Below are positions 1 through 64,000 of a DNA stretch of 64,000 bases, piece after piece (the stretch's first letter is position 1; each line of letters starts with the position of its first letter). Below the pieces are notes generated by a model. The model did not search any database and was not told the origin of the DNA. It saw only the letters and a program-made list of their open reading frames with translations. A program made the translations under genes and the position numbers. Source of the stretch: a virus (taxonomy: Duplodnaviria; Caudoviricetes); the IMG/VR virus record IMGVR_UViG_3300010266_000007, positions 2,012-66,011 of that record. One strand, written 5' to 3'.

Positions 1-681
1 TATCTCGGAAATCATTTCTGCAAGCCATTGTTTCGCACCTTCATAGTCCCTATCCAAGAACGGCTCTTCGATGAAGGTATCGGTGCGGAAACAGTTGAAG
101 CAAAGCTTGTGAGGCCGAACACCGTATTCCTCCTCGACCGCAGCCGAATAGAGGTACAGCTGCCTAAGATAAGCGTCCAGTTCCTCGTCCGTTTTGGTCG
201 GTTTCTCTCGCTTGCTCCGAGGCTTCAAAACCCTGGACTTGTTATCCACCACATAGAGGGAGCCATCCAGCTCTCCAAGAAAATCAATGTAGCCAATGAA
301 GGGGATTCCATTCACCTTGAAATCCACCTTCTTTTCAATGGCTGCAGGTCGATACGGAAACGGGTGGATGCCACGCAAATACTCAAGACCACCAGTGAAG
401 TAGTTCCCGAAGACCGTTTTATTTGGCGCCCGACCGACAACCTCTTTCTTGAAATCTCGCAGGTAAATGTCTGTCAACTGGCGCGGGGATTTTCCCTCCT
501 TGAAGTAGGTTTCAATCAGCTTGTGCATGAATGTGCCATAGCTTGCGAAAAACATTTCTTTGCCGCGGATATGCCGGATGTACTTCAGATAAAATCGATA
601 TGGGCAATCTACGAAAGCTTTGATACGGGAGTAGCTCCAGACCATATCATCAATGAGCGGTGCGTAATTGATTTCTCCCAT
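1..681 (-). CDS. PD-(D/E)XK (AddB/Cas4-like) exonuclease, runs off left edge
   Basis: Manual translation MGEINYAPLIDDMVWSYSRIKAFVDCPYRFYL...IEKK...GYIDF...VVDNKS...QLYLYS; RBS AAAGGTGG upstream of ATG 681; absent from ORF track because it is open at the edge. Confidence 0.85.
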   Translation of the reverse strand, partial: MGEINYAPLIDDMVWSYSRIKAFVDCPYRFYLKYIRHIRGKEMFFASYGTFMHKLIETYFKEGKSPRQLTDIYLRDFKKEVVGRAPNKTVFGNYFTGGLEYLRGIHPFPYRPAAIEKKVDFKVNGIPFIGYIDFLGELDGSLYVVDNKSRVLKPRSKREKPTKTDEELDAYLRQLYLYSAAVEEEYGVRPHKLCFNCFRTDTFIEEPFLDRDYEGAKQWLAEMISEI

Positions 682-693
682 AGTCCGCCACCT

Positions 694-1065
694 TTAGAAA
701 GGCAGGCGGTTGTCGTCGATTTCGCCCTCATCAACTGTGGGCTGCGGCTCTGTACTGCTGTCACGAGGTTCCTCTCCGTCAAGCTCAAAGGAGAACATTT
801 TGAAGTTGGTATATGTAACCTTTTTCTCTTTGTCGTACTTGGTTGTCACATCCACATCGCCGAGTTTGATGCGGTTGCCCTCTTTCAAACTGGCAGCTTT
901 CTTTGCTGCCGCCGTTCCGATGGCGAGAACGAAACCGGAAAAATCCTGTTCATACTCGCCAGACTGTTTGTTCTTTCGACTGATGGACATACGAACCTTC
1001 GTGCTGGTGTCGCTCATCGGCGTCACTTCCCAGACCTTTGCATAAGCACCTGTGCGAAAACCCAT
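694..1065 (-). CDS. ssb: Single-stranded DNA-binding protein
   Basis: 123 aa, beta-rich OB-like core, acidic tail ending DDNRLPF, next to ERF. Confidence 0.75.
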   Translation of the reverse strand: MGFRTGAYAKVWEVTPMSDTSTKVRMSISRKNKQSGEYEQDFSGFVLAIGTAAAKKAASLKEGNRIKLGDVDVTTKYDKEKKVTYTNFKMFSFELDGEEPRDSSTEPQPTVDEGEIDDNRLPF

Positions 1066-1068
1066 GTG

Positions 1069-1770
1069 TTACTCCTCCTTAATACTGAATGTCTCTTTGA
1101 AATCTGCCAGCAATTTACCGGCAAGAGCTGACTCGGTGATGGCAAAATAGTTGCCACCCTTTGCGTACTTGGACACAAACTTTTTCACATCCTCCGCCTT
1201 ATCCTTATTGGACTCAAGGAAGTGCTTGACTGTCTCGTCAAAACTCTGGATGATGCCTTCCGCAATCATCTTATCCTCAGCCGCCTCAGCAGCACGCTGC
1301 TTGCTGCGGAAATTATCGGGGTCGTCATCCGGCGTTGCGATGTTGAAATACTTGAGAAGGAAGTACCGACTTGAGTAAGTCAACCCGGAACCAAATGCCT
1401 GTGAAGCATCGCTCTGTTGTCCAACAAGAGCCCAACTGACATCGATGCGCTCTTCGGGATTGTCGTTGTTGACCCAAGACCATGTCATATCGGCGCTTAC
1501 CAGAATCTCGTTGCTATTTTCTTCGTAAAACTCGCCCTTACCAGTTGTCTTGGTTTTCTTATATGTATAGGGTTCTACTCTTGTAGTTCCAGACTGAATA
1601 CTGGGAACCAGTGACAGGTGATACTTGTCCATAAAAACCGAGATTTTTGCGAGAATTTCATCTTCGGTGACATACTTGTAGCCGTAGCCGCTTTTGTTTT
1701 TCCGGATGACCTCGACCTGTTTTCTGACCTTGGCAAGCTTTTGATAAATGTTGGCTGTCTGCTCTGACAT
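1069..1770 (-). CDS. erf: ERF-family single-strand annealing recombinase
   Basis: GYGYKYVTEDEIL and QAFGSGLTYSSRYFLLKYFNIA motifs. Confidence 0.85.
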   Translation of the reverse strand: MSEQTANIYQKLAKVRKQVEVIRKNKSGYGYKYVTEDEILAKISVFMDKYHLSLVPSIQSGTTRVEPYTYKKTKTTGKGEFYEENSNEILVSADMTWSWVNNDNPEERIDVSWALVGQQSDASQAFGSGLTYSSRYFLLKYFNIATPDDDPDNFRSKQRAAEAAEDKMIAEGIIQSFDETVKHFLESNKDKAEDVKKFVSKYAKGGNYFAITESALAGKLLADFKETFSIKEE

Positions 1771-23115: not shown

Positions 23116-24282
23116 ATGCGCGACATCGTTATGGGAAAGCTGGTTGACCACACCATAGACGATGAGTACGAGGACTTGAGCGAGCGTCTGTTTGGTGAGG
23201 GCAACTGCTTCAACTCCAGTGAAGTACGGAAACGGATGTATGGGATGCGTACCATCATCGAAGCTATCGAGCGTGACGGTGAGGCTGCCGTATGCGATGA
23301 AGAGCAGCTGTCTGCGCTGGAGACCAGACGCATTGAACTGCTCAAGGAACGGCAGAAGTTCTTTGACCAGAGGAATGCGTTTAACAAACTGATTCGTGAG
23401 CGTTCCCGCCAAGAGGAGCTTAACGAGATTCTTGTGGAAGCGGTCAAGAACGGGGACTTGCCCCGCCTTGCCTATGAGCCGTGCCATATCGAACCGTCCG
23501 ACAACGACCTGTTGGTCAGTCTTAACGATATTCATTACGGTGCGAATGTGGACAACCATTGGAATACATATAACTCAAATGTGTGCAGAGAGATGATGTG
23601 TCGGTATCTGGATAAGGTCATCTCTATCGGCGAGACGCACGGCAGTGAGAACTGTATTGTCTGGTCAAATGGTGATGCTATTAGTGGTAATATTCACCAG
23701 TCTATCGCCATCACCAACAAGGAGAATGTAATTGAGCAAATCAAGGGCGTTTCGGAACTGATTGCTGAGTTCCTTGCCGAACTGAGCAAACATTTCAAAT
23801 CCGTGGTATTTGTCAGTGTGGCGGGAAATCACAGCCGCATTACACCCAACAAGGATGATGCCTTGCTCGGTGAGCGTCTGGACGATTTGGTCGAGTGGTA
23901 TCTTGACGCACGGCTGCAGAACTTCGAGAATGTCATCATTGGCGCTGCGGAAGGAAGTTCTGCAAAAATCGACAGCACCATGTATCTTATCAATGTTCGC
24001 GGTAAGACATACTGCGGCGTTCACGGCGACTTTGATGGTTCCGCCAGCAAAGTGCAGGCGCTGCAGACAATGGCGAGAACTCCGCTGTACGCTGTACTAT
24101 CCGGGCATTTGCATCATAACAAGATTGATGAAGTGCAGGGCGTAAAGACCATCATGGCGGGAAGCTTCCTCGGCATGGATGATTACTGCGTACAGAAACG
24201 AATCTACGGGAAAGCGGAACAGATGGTATGTGTTTGCGATGTGGATGGCGTCCGCTGTTCCTACAGTGTCCCCCTTCAATAA
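23116..24282 (+). CDS. Calcineurin-like metallophosphoesterase (possible ATA start at 23086)
   Basis: SLNDIHYG, NGDAISG, AGNHSR, VHGD, SGHLHH. Confidence 0.85.
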   Translation: MRDIVMGKLVDHTIDDEYEDLSERLFGEGNCFNSSEVRKRMYGMRTIIEAIERDGEAAVCDEEQLSALETRRIELLKERQKFFDQRNAFNKLIRERSRQEELNEILVEAVKNGDLPRLAYEPCHIEPSDNDLLVSLNDIHYGANVDNHWNTYNSNVCREMMCRYLDKVISIGETHGSENCIVWSNGDAISGNIHQSIAITNKENVIEQIKGVSELIAEFLAELSKHFKSVVFVSVAGNHSRITPNKDDALLGERLDDLVEWYLDARLQNFENVIIGAAEGSSAKIDSTMYLINVRGKTYCGVHGDFDGSASKVQALQTMARTPLYAVLSGHLHHNKIDEVQGVKTIMAGSFLGMDDYCVQKRIYGKAEQMVCVCDVDGVRCSYSVPLQ

Positions 24283-24291
24283 ACAACCCGC

Positions 24292-24328
24292 GAGGGCTGC
24301 CCTGTAATGGGCAGCCCTCTTCTGATTT
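24292..24328 (+). terminator. Rho-independent terminator
   Basis: GAGGGCTGCCC-tgtaat-GGGCAGCCCTC followed by TTCTGATTT. Confidence 0.7.
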
Positions 24329-24329
24329 C

Positions 24330-24598
24330 ATTGAGACTTCGGTTCCACCTCCTACTCCGTTTCTGGAGAGGGAACGCAGTATGCCTATTACAAGGCGGGC
24401 AACTCGAAGGTGAAGAACAGAAGTGGCTCCGCTGCCAACTGGTGGATGCGTTCTCCTTGGTCTGGTAACAGCATTAGCTCTTGTTATGTCGGCAGCACCG
24501 GTAACGCCATCTATGGCTACGCCGCCACCAGTTTTGGCGTCGCTTTCGGCTTCTGCGTCTAACCCCTCCACCCCGCCGCATTTGCTTTGACGCAGAAT
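24330..24598 (+). pseudogene. Orphan copy of the DGR target 3' end (pre-VR arm, VR, IMH, 36 nt downstream)
   Basis: Colinear without indels from 24338 to 24598 with 61327-61587; in-frame TGA at 24332 and no credible start or RBS. Confidence 0.92.
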
Positions 24599-24608
24599 AT
24601 ATCTTCAT

Positions 24609-24684
24609 GGGGTCGTGGTCAAGCGGTTAAGACACCGCCCTTTCACGGCGGTAACGATGGGTTCGATTCCCTCCGACCTCACCA
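24609..24684 (+). tRNA. tRNA-Glu(TTC)
   Basis: GGGGTCG/CGACCTC acceptor, CCGCC-CTTTCAC-GGCGG anticodon arm, TTCGATT loop (one bulged T in the T-stem), encoded CCA. Confidence 0.92.
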
Positions 24685-24690
24685 TACTTT

Positions 24691-24776
24691 GGGAGAGTGG
24701 TAGAGCGGTCAATTACAGCAGACTGTAAATCTGCCGCCTTCGGGCTGCGTTGGTTCAAATCCAACCTCTCCCACCA
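24691..24776 (+). tRNA. tRNA-Tyr(GTA)
   Basis: GGGAGAG/CTCTCCC acceptor, GCAGA-CTGTAAA-TCTGC, long variable arm, encoded CCA. Confidence 0.95.
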
Positions 24777-24779
24777 TAT

Positions 24780-24855
24780 TGCGGGCAGGACAAGCGGTTA
24801 AGTCGCAGGTCTCATAAACCTTGAGGAATCGGTTCAACTCCGGTGCCCGCAACCA
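24780..24855 (+). tRNA. tRNA with CAT anticodon (initiator-like Met, atypical)
   Basis: TGCGGGC/GCCCGCA acceptor, loop CTCATAA, TTCAACT, encoded CCA. Confidence 0.85.
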
Positions 24856-24887
24856 GTTTCAATTCTACAGAAAGCGAGGTGGCTTGT

Positions 24888-25919
24888 ATGCCCCGAAAAA
24901 CAAAGCAGAACGAAATCACAAGCCCTGAGCTTTTAAGTCAGGTCAACCCGGAAAACATCCGGCTAAAGCAGGACTTTATTGCCTACCTACAGTCTGTTCA
25001 GCGTAGCCCCAAAACAATTGCGGGCTATGCGAACGACCTTGATATTTTTTGGGTTTGGAATTTGCAGAACAATGGGAACAAGTTTTTTCCGAAAATCTCC
25101 AAGCGTGATTATGCCGCATATCAGCATTGGCTCATCAATGAGAATGGTAATTCTCCCGCTCGTGTGCGGCGCTTGAAGTCTGCGATTTCTTCCCTCTCCA
25201 ATTATGTGGAGAACATCTTGGATGATGAAGATGAGTTTAAGGGATTCCGTTCTACTGTAAGGAAGATAGAGAATCCCGCCATGCAGCAGGTGCGAAAGAA
25301 AACGGTGTGGAGCGATGAGGCGCTGGACAAGCTTCTTGATGACCTGCTCGCCTGCGGGCAAAACAAAAAGGCTTGTGCTGTTGCTCTTGCTATGTGCAGC
25401 GGGCGGCGCAAGGCAGAGCTTTGCCGGTTCAGGGTTGACGATTTCAAAGACGACAACCTTGTATGTGGCGGCGCATTGTACAAGACCAGTGAGCCGATTC
25501 AAACAAAAGGGTTTGGCCTTGGTAAGTACATCTACTGCTACACGCTGGCAAAAAAGTTCAAGCCGTATTTTGATGCTTGGATGCGTGAACGGACGGAACT
25601 TGGCGTTGAAAGCGAGTGGCTGTTTCCGGCTGGAACGACCAGTGAGCAAATGAGTGAGACAACACTCAACAGTTGGGCGAACACCTTTAGCAGAATGACC
25701 GGCGAAGATTTTTACTGGCACAGTCTGCGGCATTACTTCACAACGCATCTCTCCAAGCTTGGCTTACCGGACAACATCATTCAAGACATTGTCGGGTGGG
25801 AGTCTGCCGATATGGTGCGCGTTTATAAAGACCTGAGCGCAGAGGAACAGATTTCGCAGTACTTTGACGAGAATGGTGATATTCGGTCTGACGCACAGAA
25901 GTCACTGTCAGACCTGTAA
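24888..25919 (+). CDS. Tyrosine recombinase (XerC/D-like)
   Basis: SAM-like N-domain, SGRRKAEL (Arg), KTKG, HSLRH, GWES...VRVY (Tyr); ATG 24888 after GAGGT. Confidence 0.92.
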   Translation: MPRKTKQNEITSPELLSQVNPENIRLKQDFIAYLQSVQRSPKTIAGYANDLDIFWVWNLQNNGNKFFPKISKRDYAAYQHWLINENGNSPARVRRLKSAISSLSNYVENILDDEDEFKGFRSTVRKIENPAMQQVRKKTVWSDEALDKLLDDLLACGQNKKACAVALAMCSGRRKAELCRFRVDDFKDDNLVCGGALYKTSEPIQTKGFGLGKYIYCYTLAKKFKPYFDAWMRERTELGVESEWLFPAGTTSEQMSETTLNSWANTFSRMTGEDFYWHSLRHYFTTHLSKLGLPDNIIQDIVGWESADMVRVYKDLSAEEQISQYFDENGDIRSDAQKSLSDL

Positions 25920-58640: not shown

Positions 58641-59105
58641 ATGGCTGAATTTAACACACGAATCAGACTCAAACGAGATACGAGCGCAAACTGGACGAAC
58701 AGTAACCCTGTCATTCTGGACGGGGAAATCATCATTGTCGATACGGCCAGCGGTAGCGTTCGCAGGAAGATTGGTGATGGGACAAAGACCTACTCACAGC
58801 TCCCGTTTGACGATGAAGACATCTACAATGCGCTTGCAGGGAAATGTGACGCAAGCGTATTTATCAATACCACTTTGGTGGCAGGCAGTTGGTCAAATGG
58901 TCAGCAGACGCTGACCGTTGCTGGGCTTGGCGCAGAGCAGAATGGTGTAATTGGCATTTCACAGAGTATTTCTGATGAACAATTTGCCGCAGCTGCGGAA
59001 GCCTGCCTGTATGTCTGCTCACAAAGTGCAGGCTCTATCACGATTGCGGCCAACGGAACAGTACCGGAATGTGACATTCCCGTTACCGTGATTTTGCTGT
59101 CTTAA
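58641..59105 (+). CDS. Mtd_N-like small tail protein
   Basis: FNTRIRLKRDTSANW...ILDGE...KIGDG; C-domain paralogous to the next gene. Confidence 0.72.
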   Translation: MAEFNTRIRLKRDTSANWTNSNPVILDGEIIIVDTASGSVRRKIGDGTKTYSQLPFDDEDIYNALAGKCDASVFINTTLVAGSWSNGQQTLTVAGLGAEQNGVIGISQSISDEQFAAAAEACLYVCSQSAGSITIAANGTVPECDIPVTVILLS

Positions 59106-59121: not shown

Positions 59122-59523
59122 ATGAACACGACAAACTATAACCTCTATCTTGAAGATGACAGCACGACACGCTTCCTTGACTGGCGCAAAAAGATGAACG
59201 GAACCGATAACTCCAATATGGTGAAAATCGATGCTGCTCTCGGTGAGAAAGCGAATAGCAGCGTGGCAGTGAATACAACTTTACTCGCCTCTGCATGGAT
59301 TGGTGTCGAGGCTCCATACACGCAGGAGCTCACCGTAACAGGTCTTACGGCTTTACAGAATGGGACTATCTCGGTGGCGCACAGTGCCACGGCAGAACAG
59401 CGCGAAATTGCCAGAGAAGCAATGCTGTCTGTTATCGGGCAGGAGGATGGCAAGCTGACTATCGCCGCAGATGGTGAAATGCCCGAATTTGATATCCCGG
59501 TCTACATCATTTTGTTAGGTTAA
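59122..59523 (+). CDS. Small tail protein, paralogous C-domain
   Basis: NTTL.A..W...TLTV.GL.A.QNG...TIAA.G..PE.DIPV..ILL shared with 58641. Confidence 0.68.
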   Translation: MNTTNYNLYLEDDSTTRFLDWRKKMNGTDNSNMVKIDAALGEKANSSVAVNTTLLASAWIGVEAPYTQELTVTGLTALQNGTISVAHSATAEQREIAREAMLSVIGQEDGKLTIAADGEMPEFDIPVYIILLG

Positions 59524-59538
59524 AAGGAGGATGATTTC

Positions 59539-61551
59539 ATGCCTATTTTATCAAATTTTCCCGGCGGAGCTGGCTCCGGCAGCGGTGGCGTGACGCTCGG
59601 CGCGGTTTCCAATATCAATGTGCTTGTTGCTTCAGGCAAGGTATATGTGAAATGGACTGACCCTTCCGATATTGTGGTATCGGGTTCTACGCTTGCAGCA
59701 TGGGGTGGAACCTTGCTTGTGCGCAAGGCCGGTTCCGCTCCTAAGAGCCGCCGCGATGGCACTGTAGTGCTGGACAGCAAGACGAGAGATGCCTACAAAA
59801 CATCTTATTTCTGCGACAGCGGTCTTTCCAACGGTGTTACCTACTACTATAAGTTCTTCCCTTATACCACAAATAATGCCTACACAGACAGCGAAGATAA
59901 TGCATTTACAGCAACGCCTACCGTTCAGGTCACTGGCATTTCAAGCTGGAATGTGACAGGTATGACTGCATCAGAAGAAGCTGGCAACGGCAAAATGACT
60001 GTTAAGTGGACTGACCCCGCTGCAAGCATTACATCGGACGGTGTTACACTGGCAACATGGGAAAGCACTACGATTGTTGTTAAGGCTGATGGTTATGCAT
60101 CCGGTAAGGACGACCCTGGGGCTGCGTTTACACGAAAGGTCACGACTCGCAACCAGTACGCCAATACGCCGCTGACCATTACAGGCCTGACGAACGGGAC
60201 GACTTACTATATCAGTTTCTATCCCGAGACTACAGACGGTGGCATCAATACTTCTACATCTCAGCGGACTACCGGTAAGGCAAACCGTATTACCATTTCA
60301 GCAATCCCTTCACAAAGCGGTACATTGACCTATAACGGTAACAGCCAGTCTCCCACTTGGAGCAACTACAGTGCTACCAAGACCACCATTGGAGGCACCA
60401 CATCAGGAACAAATGCTAATAATTACAACGCTACATTTACTCCGACTGCGGATTATCGTTGGTCAGATGGGAGCACCACGGCAAAAACAGTTGTGTGGTC
60501 AATCGGCAAGGCTGCTGGCTCTTTAAGCATTAGCCCTACCTCCATTACGCTGAATGCCTCCAACAGGTCAAAAACGATTACCGTTACGCGGGCTGGTAAC
60601 GGTGTTGTCAGTGCGAGTTCCAATAATACGGGCGTGGCAAAGGTGACCGTTTCCGGCACGACTGTTACGGTTTCCAGCGTGAATGACACGACTGGTAATG
60701 CGACCATTACCATCAGTGTTGCGGCTGGCACAAACCATACCGCACCCGCCAGCAAGACCTGCGCTGTGACTGCATCCTTCAAACCTACGGCTTCCACTGC
60801 TGCTACTTCTGGCGTGAATTATACATCCGGTCTTTCCGGCGTAGCAGCATCGGATGTAACGCTGTTTGCTGAGGCAATCTCTAACAACAGTAGCATCACA
60901 AACGCGACATCCACGGTGTACATTGATTTCGGCAGCGTTCATCGTAAGGTCAGTGTTGGCGACCAGGTGACGCTCGCCCTGAATGGTACGAATTACACCT
61001 TTGATGTAATTGGTTTTAACCATGATACGCTGACAACATCTACCGCGTATGGTGCTACCACTAAGACCGGCAAGGCTGGTATCACATTCCAGATGCATGA
61101 CCTGTTTGCAACGACCTATGTGATGAACAGTTCTAACACAAACAGCGGCGGCTGGAAGAGTAGCGCTATGCGCACCTCGACGATGGCGACTATGAAGGGG
61201 TATCTGCCCGCAGCATGGCAGACAGCCATCAAGCCGGTCAATAAAGTTTCCGGCACTGGCGGCGGTTCTTCAAGCGGTACGGAAACAGTCTCCGACAGCT
61301 GCTTCCTGCTGGCCGAAATCGAAATCTTCGGTTCCACCACCTATTCCGTTTCTGGAGAAGGAACGCAGTACGCATATTACAAGGCAGGCAACTCGAAGGT
61401 GAAGAACAAAGGTGGCTCCGCTTACATCTGGTGGGAGCGTTCTCCTATTTCTGGCAACAGCAATCTTTTCTGTTATGTCATCAGCAACGGCGGCGCCGAC
61501 AATTACTACGCCAACTACAGTTATGGCGTCGCTTTCGGCTTCTGCGTCTAA
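59539..61551 (+). CDS. DGR target: receptor-binding tail fibre (Fn3/Ig-like repeats plus C-terminal CLec/DUF6273-like domain)
   Basis: Two VKWTDP Fn3-like units, Thr-rich Ig-like domains, C-terminal WWERSP...GVAFGFCV containing the VR. Confidence 0.88.
   Translation: MPILSNFPGGAGSGSGGVTLGAVSNINVLVASGKVYVKWTDPSDIVVSGSTLAAWGGTLLVRKAGSAPKSRRDGTVVLDSKTRDAYKTSYFCDSGLSNGVTYYYKFFPYTTNNAYTDSEDNAFTATPTVQVTGISSWNVTGMTASEEAGNGKMTVKWTDPAASITSDGVTLATWESTTIVVKADGYASGKDDPGAAFTRKVTTRNQYANTPLTITGLTNGTTYYISFYPETTDGGINTSTSQRTTGKANRITISAIPSQSGTLTYNGNSQSPTWSNYSATKTTIGGTTSGTNANNYNATFTPTADYRWSDGSTTAKTVVWSIGKAAGSLSISPTSITLNASNRSKTITVTRAGNGVVSASSNNTGVAKVTVSGTTVTVSSVNDTTGNATITISVAAGTNHTAPASKTCAVTASFKPTASTAATSGVNYTSGLSGVAASDVTLFAEAISNNSSITNATSTVYIDFGSVHRKVSVGDQVTLALNGTNYTFDVIGFNHDTLTTSTAYGATTKTGKAGITFQMHDLFATTYVMNSSNTNSGGWKSSAMRTSTMATMKGYLPAAWQTAIKPVNKVSGTGGGSSSGTETVSDSCFLLAEIEIFGSTTYSVSGEGTQYAYYKAGNSKVKNKGGSAYIWWERSPISGNSNLFCYVISNGGADNYYANYSYGVAFGFCV
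61411..61551 (+). repeat. DGR variable region (VR) with IMH
   Basis: Aligns to TR 62259-62393 over 135 nt with 16 mismatches, 15 at TR adenines. Confidence 0.97.
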
Positions 61552-61604
61552 CCTCTCCACCCCGCCGCATTTGCTTTGACGCAGAATGCCCAGTGCGCAA
61601 ACAA

Positions 61605-61675
61605 GGGCAGCCCGCTCTCCCCGGTCAGGGGAGACGGCTGCCCGTATGCCGCATTGTGTAAGGGGTACACCCCTT
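61605..61675 (+). promoter_or_regulatory. GC-rich hairpins downstream of IMH (candidate target-recognition cruciform)
   Basis: GGGCAGCC..TCTCCCC/GGGGAGA..GGCTGCCC (61605-61643) and AAGGGG-TACA-CCCCTT (61660-61675). Confidence 0.6.
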
Positions 61676-61734
61676 GCGGTTAGAGGTGTGGGAATCCCAT
61701 TCGCATAAGTAAAACGGAAGAAAAGGAGGAAAGA

Positions 61735-62202
61735 ATGTCCGTATATAAATCAAAGCGCAGTACGAGCGCAATCCAGTATGTCGAGAACGCACGGCAACTA
61801 CAGGTGTTTACCATCAAGAATTGCGTGAAGTTCCCCAAACGATATACCTATATTGTCGTGCAAAAAATTGCGAATCTTGTGGAAGACATTGACACCCATG
61901 TGCGCGTGGCAGAATCAATGATGCCGACCAATCTGCATGAAGCACAGCTAAAGCGTGATGAGCTCACTTACACTTTCGGCTTGCTCAACAGCTTGGATGA
62001 TAAGCTTCAGCTGATGTATGACATCGTTTCAGACAACCCGAATTTCAAGACGGAGTTTAAGTGGTTGCCTAACGCCATGCTTGAATGGGGTCGGCTCATC
62101 CAGAAGGAGCGTGACCTTATTACGGGCGTCAAGAAGGCAGACCGGAAACGGTTCAAGGAAAAATTCAAGGAATACGAAGATAACAGTATTCCGACAAATT
62201 AA
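61735..62202 (+). CDS. avd: DGR accessory variability determinant (Avd-like four-helix bundle)
   Basis: 155 aa; KFPKRYTY motif, helical; located between VR and TR. Confidence 0.85.
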   Translation: MSVYKSKRSTSAIQYVENARQLQVFTIKNCVKFPKRYTYIVVQKIANLVEDIDTHVRVAESMMPTNLHEAQLKRDELTYTFGLLNSLDDKLQLMYDIVSDNPNFKTEFKWLPNAMLEWGRLIQKERDLITGVKKADRKRFKEKFKEYEDNSIPTN

Positions 62203-62258
62203 GTTACTCTAAGGTCAAGTCTCGTCTTGTTGTGTTCTGTGGGCTTTTGGGCTGCTGT

Positions 62259-62393
62259 GGTGGCTCCGCTAACAACTGGTGGGAGCGTTCTCCTAATTCT
62301 GGCAACAGCAATAATTTCTGTAATGTCAACAGCAACGGCAACGCCAACAATAACAACGCCAACAACAGTAATGGCGTCGCTTTCGGATTCTGT
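62259..62393 (+). ncRNA. DGR template region (TR) with IMH*
   Basis: 17 AAC/AAT codons in 45, colinear with VR; 3' end GGA TTC TGT differs from IMH GGC TTC TGC. Confidence 0.97.
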
Positions 62394-62641
62394 AGGTCTA
62401 TAGGTCAATCAAAGTAACCCTCGTGGCGAAATTTGTACTTCTGCAGAAGGGAGACTTGTTCCTGTAGCATAGTGAAATATGCTCAAAACAGTGTGTCGAT
62501 GATATGCACCGGATGACGCTTCTTGCATGGCCGATGAATACGGGAATAGTCGGTTTCATGGTGCGGACTACGCAGTTAGAACTCCCGCCTACAATAAGAC
62601 TGTACGGCACACCCAATTTTCTTGTATATAAGGGATGAGGT
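62394..62641 (+). ncRNA. DGR spacer RNA between TR and RT
   Basis: 248-nt non-coding interval at the position of the cDNA-priming spacer in known DGRs. Confidence 0.5.
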
Positions 62642-63826
62642 ATGAACAGTAAGGAAAGACATGAAATTAGATATCAGCGCAGAGTGGCGGCTCGTCAGGC
62701 GAAAAGGACTGCCTACAGTGAAAGCTTTGGCCGTTATGAAGATGTGTTCTCCTATGAGCACCTTTATCAGGCGGGCAAGAACTGCTGCAAAGGGGTTATG
62801 TGGAAGAACAGTACACAAAGCTATATGAGCCGCATTACCACGAACACCGCCAGCACGCATGACGCATTGTTACGCAGAGAGTTCAGGAGCCGTGGCTTCC
62901 ATGACTTTGACCTAATTGAGCGCGGAAAACTACGGCATATTCGGAGCGTTCATATCTCCGAGCGCGTAGTGCAGAGATGTCTTTGCGACAATATACTTGT
63001 CCCTGTGTTTTCTCACTCATTTGTTTTTGATAACGCCGCAAGTCTGAAAGGCAAAGGTGTTGATTTTGCTATGGACAGGCTGGATAGGCACTTGCATAGA
63101 TTCTATCGAAAGTTTGGCGTCGAAGGCGTAGAATCTGGCGGTGTTCTCACGGGCGATTTTTCCGATTTCTTTAACAGTGCGCCGCACTCTATTATCTATA
63201 GAGAAGCGGAACGCAGGATACATGACGATGATGTGCGTCGTATTGCCTGCCAGTTCATGGAGGACTTCGGAGATGTTGGTTTTGGACTTGGCAGTCAGGT
63301 GTCGCAGATAGATGCGCTTATGGTCGCAAGCCCGCTTGACCACTTCATAAAGGAACAGCTACACATCAAATACTATGGAAGATATATGGATGACTTCTAT
63401 CTGATACATGAGAACAGAGAATATCTGAAATATTGCATGGAGGAAATCAGAAAGAAGTGCAAGGAATACGGATTTGTTTTGAACGAGAAGAAGACAAAGA
63501 TAGCGCCGCTGCGCAAGGGAGTCAAATTCTTGAAAACGAAGTTTTTTCTGAATGAAACCGGTGCGGTCATTCGCAAGATGAACCGAAAATCACCGGTCAA
63601 GATGCGGAAGAAGCTCAGAATATTCCGAAGGTGGATAGATGAAGGAAGGTTCACTATCACAGATGTAGAGACAGCCTATCAAAGCTGGCGCGGACATATG
63701 ATTCGTGGAAACAGCACGCTTGTCTTGCGGAAGATGGATGCTTTCTACAACAGTTTATTCAAGAACAAGGAGGATTCAGGACATGGTAAAGTTTCTGAAG
63801 AACGGCAGCTTGCTCGCGCTTGTTGA
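62642..63826 (+). CDS. DGR reverse transcriptase
   Basis: 394 aa; ERVVQR, GKGVDFA, GDFSDFFNS, GLGSQVSQ, YGRYMDDF, VKFL. Confidence 0.96.
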   Translation: MNSKERHEIRYQRRVAARQAKRTAYSESFGRYEDVFSYEHLYQAGKNCCKGVMWKNSTQSYMSRITTNTASTHDALLRREFRSRGFHDFDLIERGKLRHIRSVHISERVVQRCLCDNILVPVFSHSFVFDNAASLKGKGVDFAMDRLDRHLHRFYRKFGVEGVESGGVLTGDFSDFFNSAPHSIIYREAERRIHDDDVRRIACQFMEDFGDVGFGLGSQVSQIDALMVASPLDHFIKEQLHIKYYGRYMDDFYLIHENREYLKYCMEEIRKKCKEYGFVLNEKKTKIAPLRKGVKFLKTKFFLNETGAVIRKMNRKSPVKMRKKLRIFRRWIDEGRFTITDVETAYQSWRGHMIRGNSTLVLRKMDAFYNSLFKNKEDSGHGKVSEERQLARAC

Positions 63827-64000
63827 GCAGCCGAACTGGGTCTACCTGCAGGAGAACGGCGCCTATGGCCTGTGTGATTATGAAAACGCACAGGGCGTCG
63901 CTATCAATGGTATCGTCTATAATCTTGCTGGAAACCTCATCAGTGAGAACGGCGAAGTCGATTTCAAGGATATTCCCAGCGGTGAATATATGATGCAGCA
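63783..64000 (+). CDS. Hypothetical protein, runs off right edge
   Basis: ATG after AAGGAGG, MVKFLKNGSLLALVEQPNWV..., open to the end. Confidence 0.65.
   Translation, partial: MVKFLKNGSLLALVEQPNWVYLQENGAYGLCDYENAQGVAINGIVYNLAGNLISENGEVDFKDIPSGEYMMQ

Follow-up and report, generated by a model that had tools for sequence, protein, structure and literature searches.

To our knowledge, DGRs are understood as one-way systems, in which the template repeat (TR) is the sole memory and a good allele of the variable region (VR) is lost at the next retrohoming. Gene conversion from silent cassettes is exemplified by pilE/pilS in Neisseria, vlsE/vls in Borrelia, tprK in Treponema pallidum and MgPar in Mycoplasma genitalium. 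Alternative fibre C-termini are also switched by site-specific inversion, as in the Gin/G segment of phage Mu, the Cin/C segment of P1 and the R64 shufflon, the latter with the tyrosine recombinase Rci. Multiple or remote VRs, truncated or "suspicious" targets, and target C-termini that were duplicated or recombined have already been described for DGRs (PMC4891356, PMC10907252, PMC8144416). The truncated or over-mutated "suspicious" targets were reported in Treponema denticola (PMC4891356), and the other two sources concern Thiohalocapsa (PMC10907252) and a global survey of DGRs (PMC8144416). The literature that we searched treated truncated copies as relics, and we saw no description in it of a silent VR serving as donor or partner in recombination with an expressed VR.

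Here we describe a VR copy, hereafter called the orphan, that lies outside any target-protein coding sequence, whereas the usual place of a DGR VR is the C-terminus of its target. The stretch of gut-phage DNA that we analyzed (the window, 64,000 nt) makes up 64 kb of a 66-kb linear IMG/VR record, a metagenome contig that is 56% complete according to CheckV; a close relative is available as a 115,998-nt genome with terminal repeats. We consider it probable, at roughly 60%, that the orphan serves as a donor cassette, a silently archived allele that exchanges sequence with the tip of the live fibre gene by homologous recombination.

The live locus of the window resembles DGRs of the Bordetella phage BPP-1 type, with a target VR, avd, a TR and a reverse transcriptase (RT). 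Unlike the extra VRs of such DGRs, the orphan belongs to no gene and is not diversified, yet it is conserved across a clade, carries a coding-like constraint and, as relatives show, exchanges with the expressed VR. Its organization is reminiscent of pilS and vls cassettes: it reproduces only the variable end of the gene, has neither promoter nor start, and is bordered on both sides by sequence homologous to the expression site, and donor sequence is seen in the expression site (of relatives) while the donor persists. It differs from these cassettes in being single instead of part of a library, in being carried by a phage, and in having an expressed counterpart with a stronger mutator of its own, the DGR. 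Furthermore, the cassette would restore an allele and not make diversity, sequence would also pass from the expressed copy to the cassette, and no dedicated initiation element is known in the phage. The Mu, P1 and R64 systems also store an alternative receptor-binding C-terminus, and a tyrosine recombinase gene lies beside the stored copy. Unlike in those systems, the two copies are direct repeats located 37 kb apart and show no evident short crossover sites, the phage recombinase is present in relatives devoid of the orphan, and the ends of the exchanged tracts vary, as expected for homologous and not site-specific recombination.

The region from 59539 to 63826 is a standard DGR, with VR mismatches at adenines only, an IMH, downstream hairpins, avd and an RT. 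The sequence-only reading had also invoked recombination genes of the phage, and the window does encode an Erf-like annealing protein together with an exonuclease. The relevant features of the window outside the orphan locus are as follows.

59539-61551, plus strand: live DGR target, a 670-aa fibre with a DUF6273 C-terminus
61327-61587, plus strand: live copy of the repeat (VR core 61411-61544), with 15 mismatches to the TR, all at adenines
61605-61675, plus strand: hairpins 3' of the live VR (DNA fold z = -4.6), absent from the orphan
61735-62202, plus strand: Avd-like accessory gene (phrog_30516), lying between VR and TR
62259-62392, plus strand: TR, matching the orphan VR core at 24422-24555
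62642-63826, plus strand: DGR reverse transcriptase
1069-1770, minus strand: Erf-like single-strand annealing protein, a candidate recombination enzyme for the exchange
1-681, minus strand: exonuclease gene adjoining the Erf-like gene, a candidate recombination enzyme for the exchange

The orphan (24338-24598) aligned with the 3' end of the fibre gene and the DNA downstream of it (61327-61587, offset 36989) over 261 nt without gaps and with 85% identity, which is far above chance expectation. This alignment, already described from the sequence alone, was recovered independently and by a repeat search of the window, which returned the same pair as family D1 (left edge 24337/8 versus 61326/7). 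The orphan contains the last 74 codons of the fibre gene, the stop codon and 36 nt beyond, and is a partial copy of the variable part of this gene, without promoter or start. Its parts and neighbours are the following.

23116-24282, plus strand: exonuclease gene (phrog_284), the left neighbour, used as a handle for finding relatives
24292-24319, plus strand: intrinsic-terminator-like hairpin of the exonuclease operon, 18 nt 5' of the orphan
24338-24598, plus strand: orphan copy of the fibre-gene 3' end, untranslated, with a gapless 85% match to the live copy and no start or ribosome-binding site in 17 relatives
24338-24421, plus strand: pre-VR homology arm of 84 nt without TR homology, differing from the live arm at 7 sites (5 synonymous)
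24422-24555, plus strand: orphan VR (TR-homologous), carrying the clade-wide "frozen" allele
24535-24562, plus strand: IMH-like VR 3' end and stop codon, identical to the live copy
24563-24598, plus strand: post-stop homology arm of 36 nt with 1 mismatch; the homology ends 10 nt before tRNA-Glu
24609-24776, plus strand: tRNA-Glu (24609-24684) and tRNA-Tyr (24691-24776), the right neighbours
24843-25919, plus strand: tyrosine recombinase, found 3' of the exonuclease across the phage family, whether or not the orphan is present

The orphan VR is thereby flanked by two segments homologous to the expression locus, the 84-nt 5' arm and a 63-nt 3' segment made of the IMH, the stop and 36 nt. The differences previously counted in the pre-VR arm, in the IMH/stop segment and after the stop were all reproduced. 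The arms on both sides lack homology to the TR, and the orphan is therefore not DGR cDNA, in agreement with the sequence-only reading. Within 24422-24555, mismatches to the TR fall at 22 adenines and 8 non-adenines in the orphan, and at 15 and 0, respectively, in the live VR; the adenine counts equal those given before, while the earlier non-adenine counts (9 and 1) resulted from a different choice of boundary. The IMH of the orphan (24535-24562) differs from the end of the TR, as an IMH does from an IMH*. The flank of the orphan folds weakly (z = +0.6), runs into tRNA-Glu and shows no hairpin like that of the live copy. Three TR-related copies are present in the window (orphan, live VR and TR), and each genome has a single orphan and no cassette library.

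The reading frame of the orphan is open for 75 sense codons between an in-frame TGA 3 nt upstream (24332-24334) and the TAA at 24560-24562, which agrees with the uninterrupted frame and the missing start noted from the sequence. No ATG, GTG or TTG associated with a ribosome-binding site was found for this frame in the window, and no conserved start codon or ribosome-binding site was found across 17 genomes. We also discarded two other roles for the orphan. A promoter inside it that would serve the tRNAs was rejected after a consensus scan of the plus strand gave none, and an attP site or prophage end beside the recombinase was rejected because the exonuclease and the recombinase are contiguous in every relative, including those on long MAG contigs.

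Relatives were retrieved with the exonuclease protein, which gave 80 related loci, and all these relatives are metagenome assemblies. The sequence-only reading had asked whether a cassette is present at this locus in related phages or is absent from them. It was present at the same exonuclease/tRNA junction in all the DGR-bearing relatives first examined (17 of 17), the closest clade, with exonucleases of 94% identity or more, having it without exception, and at 12 further loci of lineage A, all from other samples (L125-L134, L158 and L159). For the more distant DGR-bearing relatives L102-L104, the available sequence came from outside the exonuclease locus and contained no orphan. When the exonuclease was at most 87% identical, the orphan was absent, the exonuclease was followed instead by tRNAs and the same tyrosine recombinase, and a scan for RTs found no DGR in the records of these relatives. 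We distinguished a lineage A, whose members share the frozen orphan allele (the window, L004-L006, L008, L114 and L125-L134), from a lineage B, made of relatives with adenine-only differences between orphan and TR (including contigs 141859, 168589 and 029852). The orphan has three left-boundary variants with a common starting point in the fibre gene, near live position 61324, which indicates a single ancient duplication. In lineage A, an ATG in the terminator loop leads to the calling of an 83-aa ORF on the orphan; translation from this codon was rejected, since no ribosome-binding site precedes it and neither lineage B (TAA at this site) nor the window (TGA) shares it.

The comparison of orphan, live VR and TR, paired for 15 relatives, revealed contrasting dynamics of the two VR copies. 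The TR was identical or differed by one base in all but one of ~30 relatives, the exception being contig 149350, where the TR carries VR-like substitutions at adenines. Among genomes whose exonuclease genes had 0-1 differences in 1,167 nt, the orphan VRs were identical, whereas 19-21 of the 38 adenine sites differed between the live VRs, a level close to saturation. Ten more genomes, from ten samples, had orphans with 0 differences over copy positions 1-227. The peptide of the 83-aa ORF was identical in 127 contigs of one sub-lineage, with a dozen rare variants. Nine further live VRs, found beside the same RT protein and TR, were all mutually distinct, with 0-1 non-adenine changes each. Since the orphan is static where the live VRs are near saturation, it is not a routine target of retrohoming. 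The allele of the window's orphan was also found, with 1 mismatch, in one 335-nt Logan contig that then departs from the tRNA flank of the window. In lineage B, the orphans of 8 relatives differ from the TR at 15-26 adenines and at no non-adenine, with alleles unlike the live one, while the frozen allele of lineage A shows 8-14 non-adenine differences from the TR. Adenine-specific variation within the orphan, which the sequence-only reading had suggested looking for, was searched in relatives: the copies are mostly static, and adenine rewriting is rare (3' part of the L159 orphan). The proposal that the orphan is shielded from retrohoming agrees with the lack of hairpins and with its slow turnover, but rare orphans rewritten at the 3' end, such as that of L159, show that the shielding is not absolute. 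The orphan is largely shielded from the DGR.

The genome in the window is a mosaic. Its exonuclease gene differs from those of lineage A at 83-117 positions and from those of lineage B at 127-138, while its RT is 100% identical to that of lineage B and its live arms are of the lineage-B type. By these comparisons, the window is a recombinant whose left half carries the old frozen orphan and whose right half carries the fibre and DGR of the other lineage. The 7-8 differences between its arms follow from this mosaic structure, with no capture event required. All across one sub-lineage (at least 127 contigs), the frozen allele is found at this one site, and the TRs that were checked there are identical to that of the window or one base off. 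We found no TR that would explain the non-adenine sites of the frozen allele as changes at adenines only, be it in the window, in the ~30 relatives or in the diverged DGRs of L103 and L104 (RT 80-83% identical). Of the 10 non-adenine marks of the frozen allele, 6 are synonymous, as could be expected if an old allele had gathered ordinary substitutions or if the TR had once had a different version. The earlier suggestion that the orphan was captured from a phage with a different TR was not upheld, given the clade-wide presence of the frozen allele, the near-identity of the TRs and the mosaicism that explains the arms; among the TRs compared, none turned all the orphan mismatches into adenine changes.

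The pattern of substitutions in the orphan resembles that of a coding sequence. The orphan VR of the window differs from that of the lineage-A type by 8 synonymous and 2 non-synonymous changes (pS 0.27, pN 0.02; binomial p = 0.002), in a comparison where the signal comes from few substitutions (10-14). In the adjacent exonuclease gene, the same genome pairs gave a pS of 0.30-0.43 and a pN of about 0.01. The low pN, combined with a pS near that of the exonuclease gene, confirms the previous view that the orphan is not a freely decaying duplicate. Since a neutral relic of this age should show ~30 non-synonymous differences, the frozen allele was probably tested as a protein during its history. 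The allele is almost always found in the silent site, which argues for its recurrent use in the live gene.

Several observations show that the two copies exchange sequence in relatives. The arms of orphans differ on average by 2.4 positions from the live arms of their own genome and by 6.3 from those of other genomes (permutation p < 5e-5), and some private substitutions are common to both copies of a genome (e.g., G37 in contig 164030). As the DGR cannot alter the arms, their co-variation within genomes shows gene conversion between orphan and live copies in the relatives. One orphan (L159), located in its proper context with the exonuclease 5' and tRNA-Glu 3', retains the frozen allele in its 5' two-thirds and is newly mutagenized at adenines from copy position 172 onward; there, the non-adenine marks 174 and 189 are back to the TR state, and the marker at position 246 of the 3' arm has changed too. 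Because this marker lies outside the TR homology, the pattern points to a conversion tract from the live copy, which would fit better than direct retrohoming.

Exchange in the opposite direction is suggested by the alleles of live genes. The sequence-only reading had proposed to search for orphan alleles in the live gene, and they were found in full-length fibres of relatives. A protein search with the orphan peptide retrieved a full-length 669-aa fibre (P0001), with 96% identity to the window orphan over its last 74 residues. This protein is encoded in 5 contigs, of which the 4 that were fetched have the exact frozen VR of lineage A, with all 10 non-adenine marks, between arms of the live type; the P0001 contigs have a TR identical to that of the window, and avd and RT were called at full length. 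The same frozen VR, with its 10 marks, was found in a second full-length fibre of 669 aa (P0134) with a different backbone (33 aa apart), likewise beside an intact avd and RT and a TR identical to that of the window. A third full-length fibre (P0131), from a Logan contig (L156), is mosaic: copy positions 85-171 are frozen, with 8 non-adenine marks kept, whereas the sequence from position 172 is freshly rewritten, with TR states restored. Such a pattern would be expected if a live gene had received the orphan allele and had then undergone partial mutagenic retrohoming. At the junction at copy position 172, the frozen allele can share at most about 14 nt with any TR-derived allele. Logan assembly uses 31-nt words, which excludes a word-graph chimera for L156 and likewise for L159. 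The live VR is also identical to the orphan VR in three genomes (162902, 133370 and 161521). In these three, as in P0001 and P0134, the assembler could have threaded the orphan allele into the live locus, since identical stretches of 36-48 nt flank the VR in the 261-nt repeat. The frozen allele is near-fixed in the orphan (127 contigs) and rare in the live gene (7 contigs). In the window itself, orphan and live arms are not homogenized (8 differences), which argues against a recent exchange. The idea of a reserve cassette put forward from the sequence is thus retained as regards exchange with the live gene in relatives, and abandoned as regards its foreign origin.

The conservation of the copy, its stasis, the concerted evolution of its arms, its coding-like constraint and the occurrence of its allele in the live genes of relatives would be brought together by the archive reading as follows. 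The orphan would be a partial duplicate of the fibre gene's 3' end, ancient and untranslated, that occupies the variable DNA separating the exonuclease terminator from the tRNA/late-gene block. It would keep its allele because it is not a routine target of the DGR, while the live VR is constantly rewritten. Homologous recombination (gene conversion) through the two arms would swap the sequences of the orphan and the live tip, with the Erf-like annealing protein and the exonuclease of the phage as the probable enzymes. In one direction, live sequence would renew the arms of the orphan and, now and then, its VR; in the other, the stored allele would return to the expressed gene, where the DGR would mutate it again. 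Judging from allele frequencies, from which we infer the direction of single events, both directions would be used. The orphan would in effect be a silent store of one proven allele of the fibre tip, which would have entered the window with the left half of the mosaic genome and might be kept by selection.

It is possible, although we hold this more tentatively, that the orphan is a selected "restore point", i.e., a shielded and proven allele that can be rewritten into the fibre gene by homologous recombination. The DGR would explore the receptor-binding space irreversibly, and the silent copy, without hairpins and start, would escape retrohoming; lineages would then outlive host shifts, or dead ends made by the DGR, by resetting. 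Such resetting would explain why a silent sequence has a dN/dS of ~0.1 and is identical in more than 100 assemblies.

These readings must be weighed against others that give the orphan no stored function. It could be a neutral recombination scar, the functionless leftover of one illegitimate duplication, with conversion as a mere by-product of the repeat and no selection; this differs from the archive reading only on whether selection maintains the copy, since exchange occurs either way. A scar would be expected to be present as a single copy with a single origin, as the common boundary near live 61324 implies, and to sit in a permissive region, as does the orphan, whose intergenic spacer is highly variable across the family (0-3 tRNAs or up to 1.7 kb). 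The 164030 branch looks neutral, with 1 synonymous to 3 non-synonymous changes, including a W-to-R change in a conserved WW motif, and in two assemblies the 37-kb segment that separates the copies is missing, a loss that direct repeats would cause through harmful recombination. Truncated or over-mutated "suspicious" VR genes are, moreover, known as relics in T. denticola (PMC4891356). Yet we regard a scar as unlikely: under neutrality, non-synonymous and synonymous divergence should be similar, roughly 0.3, and the observed value for the former is 0.02, the frozen peptide is identical in 127 contigs with rare variants, and the orphan was lost in none of 29 clade genomes. A second, non-coding target of the DGR, whose VR would be retrohomed from the resident TR more slowly for lack of downstream hairpins, is far less probable. 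It would account for the identity of the orphan and live IMHs, for the adenine-only differences of the orphan VR in 8 relatives, for the polarity of the replacement in L159, limited to the 3' part as expected of retrohoming, and for the variability of codon 196-198, the nearest to the IMH and the most variable among orphan variants. It would leave unexplained why the orphan hardly changes in genomes whose live VRs are saturated with changes and how its non-adenine marks survive across a lineage whose TRs are identical to that of the window or one base off. The co-variation with the live gene concerns arms without TR homology, the change of marker 246 in L159 is impossible by retrohoming, and the hairpins are missing.

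The two copies might also serve as direct repeats for excision or cointegration, with a 37-kb module encompassing tRNAs, recombinase, packaging and morphogenesis genes that would loop out of, and into, the remaining ~79 kb. This alternative had been raised along with the reserve cassette, and the junction that it predicts was seen in two assemblies: contig 171539, whose 81,248 nt come close to what is left when 37 kb is taken from the 116-kb genome, and contig 029704 (9.7 kb) both run directly from the exonuclease through VR, avd and TR to the RT. The same contigs may nevertheless be explained by an assembler skipping the loop between the repeats, and no contig of the reciprocal 37-kb circle was seen. 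In addition, the order exonuclease, recombinase, HU, YonG and terminase is ancestral and contiguous in relatives devoid of the repeat, and the looped-out product would lack all structural genes, which makes this explanation very improbable, even more so than a second DGR target. An assembly artefact, namely a chimeric insertion of fibre reads, has a negligible probability: the same insert and flanks recur in dozens of assemblies made independently in many studies and with several assemblers, among them the 116-kb genome with terminal repeats, which contradicts the chimera that the sequence-only reading had considered.

A conserved silent VR copy that recombines with the expressed one would give a hypermutation system a memory at the level of alleles, and would unite two mechanisms that have been studied separately, retroelement mutagenesis and silent-cassette gene conversion. 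VR callers with a 75% minimum for adenine bias, or with the requirement that the VR lie in a gene, will fail to report such copies or filter them out, and assemblies of DGR phages can be mis-joined at them. Predictions of host range from the live VR alone would overlook the fallback allele. The frozen allele can be traced by its 8-10 diagnostic non-adenine marks.

The phage combines SPbeta-like features (an RNA polymerase with the YonO/RdRP fold and a YonG-like protein) with the Erf-like protein, the exonuclease and a standard DGR. We found no close relative among public phage records, where only the tRNAs matched, and a scan of genome contigs for isolates found no member of the DGR clade, the matches being MAGs with at most 86% identity. 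The binning of distant relatives in MAGs weakly suggests hosts among Oscillospiraceae and related Clostridia. Some relatives have a second DGR target that is absent from the window, a 224-aa protein with a short VR, encoded on the opposite strand ~18.8 kb upstream from the orphan. In L115, this second locus holds the frozen allele joined in frame to part of an McrB-like ATPase.

The window is a mosaic, its parts 1-24600 and 59500-64000 having different closest relatives. On the exonuclease side, it is nearest to the lineage A relatives, with which it shares the frozen orphan allele, at 7-10% nucleotide divergence, all others being more distant. By contrast, the RT shares 100% protein identity with that of lineage B, the relatives whose orphan differs from the TR at adenines only, and the live arms also match this lineage.

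Two metagenome assemblies lack the 37-kb tRNA-to-fibre module. In contig 171539 (L005/L100; 81,248 nt) and contig 029704 (L015/L084; 9,711 nt), the exonuclease, a single VR, avd, the TR, and the RT are directly joined, and the 81 kb of the former are close to what would be left of the 116-kb genome once 37 kb were removed. Either recombination between the direct repeats truly deleted the module from these genomes, or the assembler skipped it. A further contig carries an altered TR:
~3618-3751 of contig 149350 (L099), TR with 13 positions unlike all other TRs
Most of these changes are other bases at TR adenines, as in a VR. The live VR of this contig matches the altered TR, while the orphan matches the ancestral one, a pattern explained either by information flow from VR to TR or by misassembly of the contig.

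Relatives also encode a second DGR target, a 224-aa DUF6273-like protein, seen at:
G002:C1:9354-9462 (L107 ORF 1795-2469)
G001:C1:26903-27009
G006:C1:20599-20707
Its VR is shorter, with an unchanged IMH, and lies on the strand opposite to the orphan, about 18.8 kb upstream of it. In the record of the window this copy is absent and its place is occupied by the lysogeny-switch region. The 3' end of this second target locus, with its downstream DNA, terminates a fusion found in a 2-kb metagenome contig:
399-926, minus strand, of L115 (OKTR01007737.1), fusion containing the frozen orphan allele
Here, around 120 residues of a McrB-like AAA ATPase are followed in frame by the frozen allele, which is of the lineage A type and identical over positions 70-219. 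L115 adds another recombinant arising at VR repeats, although the contig may instead be a chimera.

Two proteins encoded upstream of the fibre gene were located through their homology to gene calls of another relative, L121:
54478-55710, first upstream protein
58641-59105, second upstream protein
Both match the Mtd_N family in relatives (precomputed annotation); the VR-bearing protein itself is a DUF6273 protein. In the DGR target of the Bordetella phage, Mtd_N forms the N-terminal domain.

The spacer between the exonuclease and tyrosine recombinase genes (window 24283-24842; homologues in L018-L083 and L135-L147) is a variable hotspot family-wide, with a length between about 100 nt and 1.7 kb and 0 to 3 tRNA genes. 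This junction was ruled out as the prophage end, since exonuclease and recombinase remain neighbours on long MAG contigs as well. Within the spacer, the core (~24616-24671) of the phage tRNA-Glu (24609-24684) recruited, in all four metagenomes, contigs with many different flanks and summed depths of hundreds to thousands, and is therefore nearly identical to bacterial tRNA-Glu genes.
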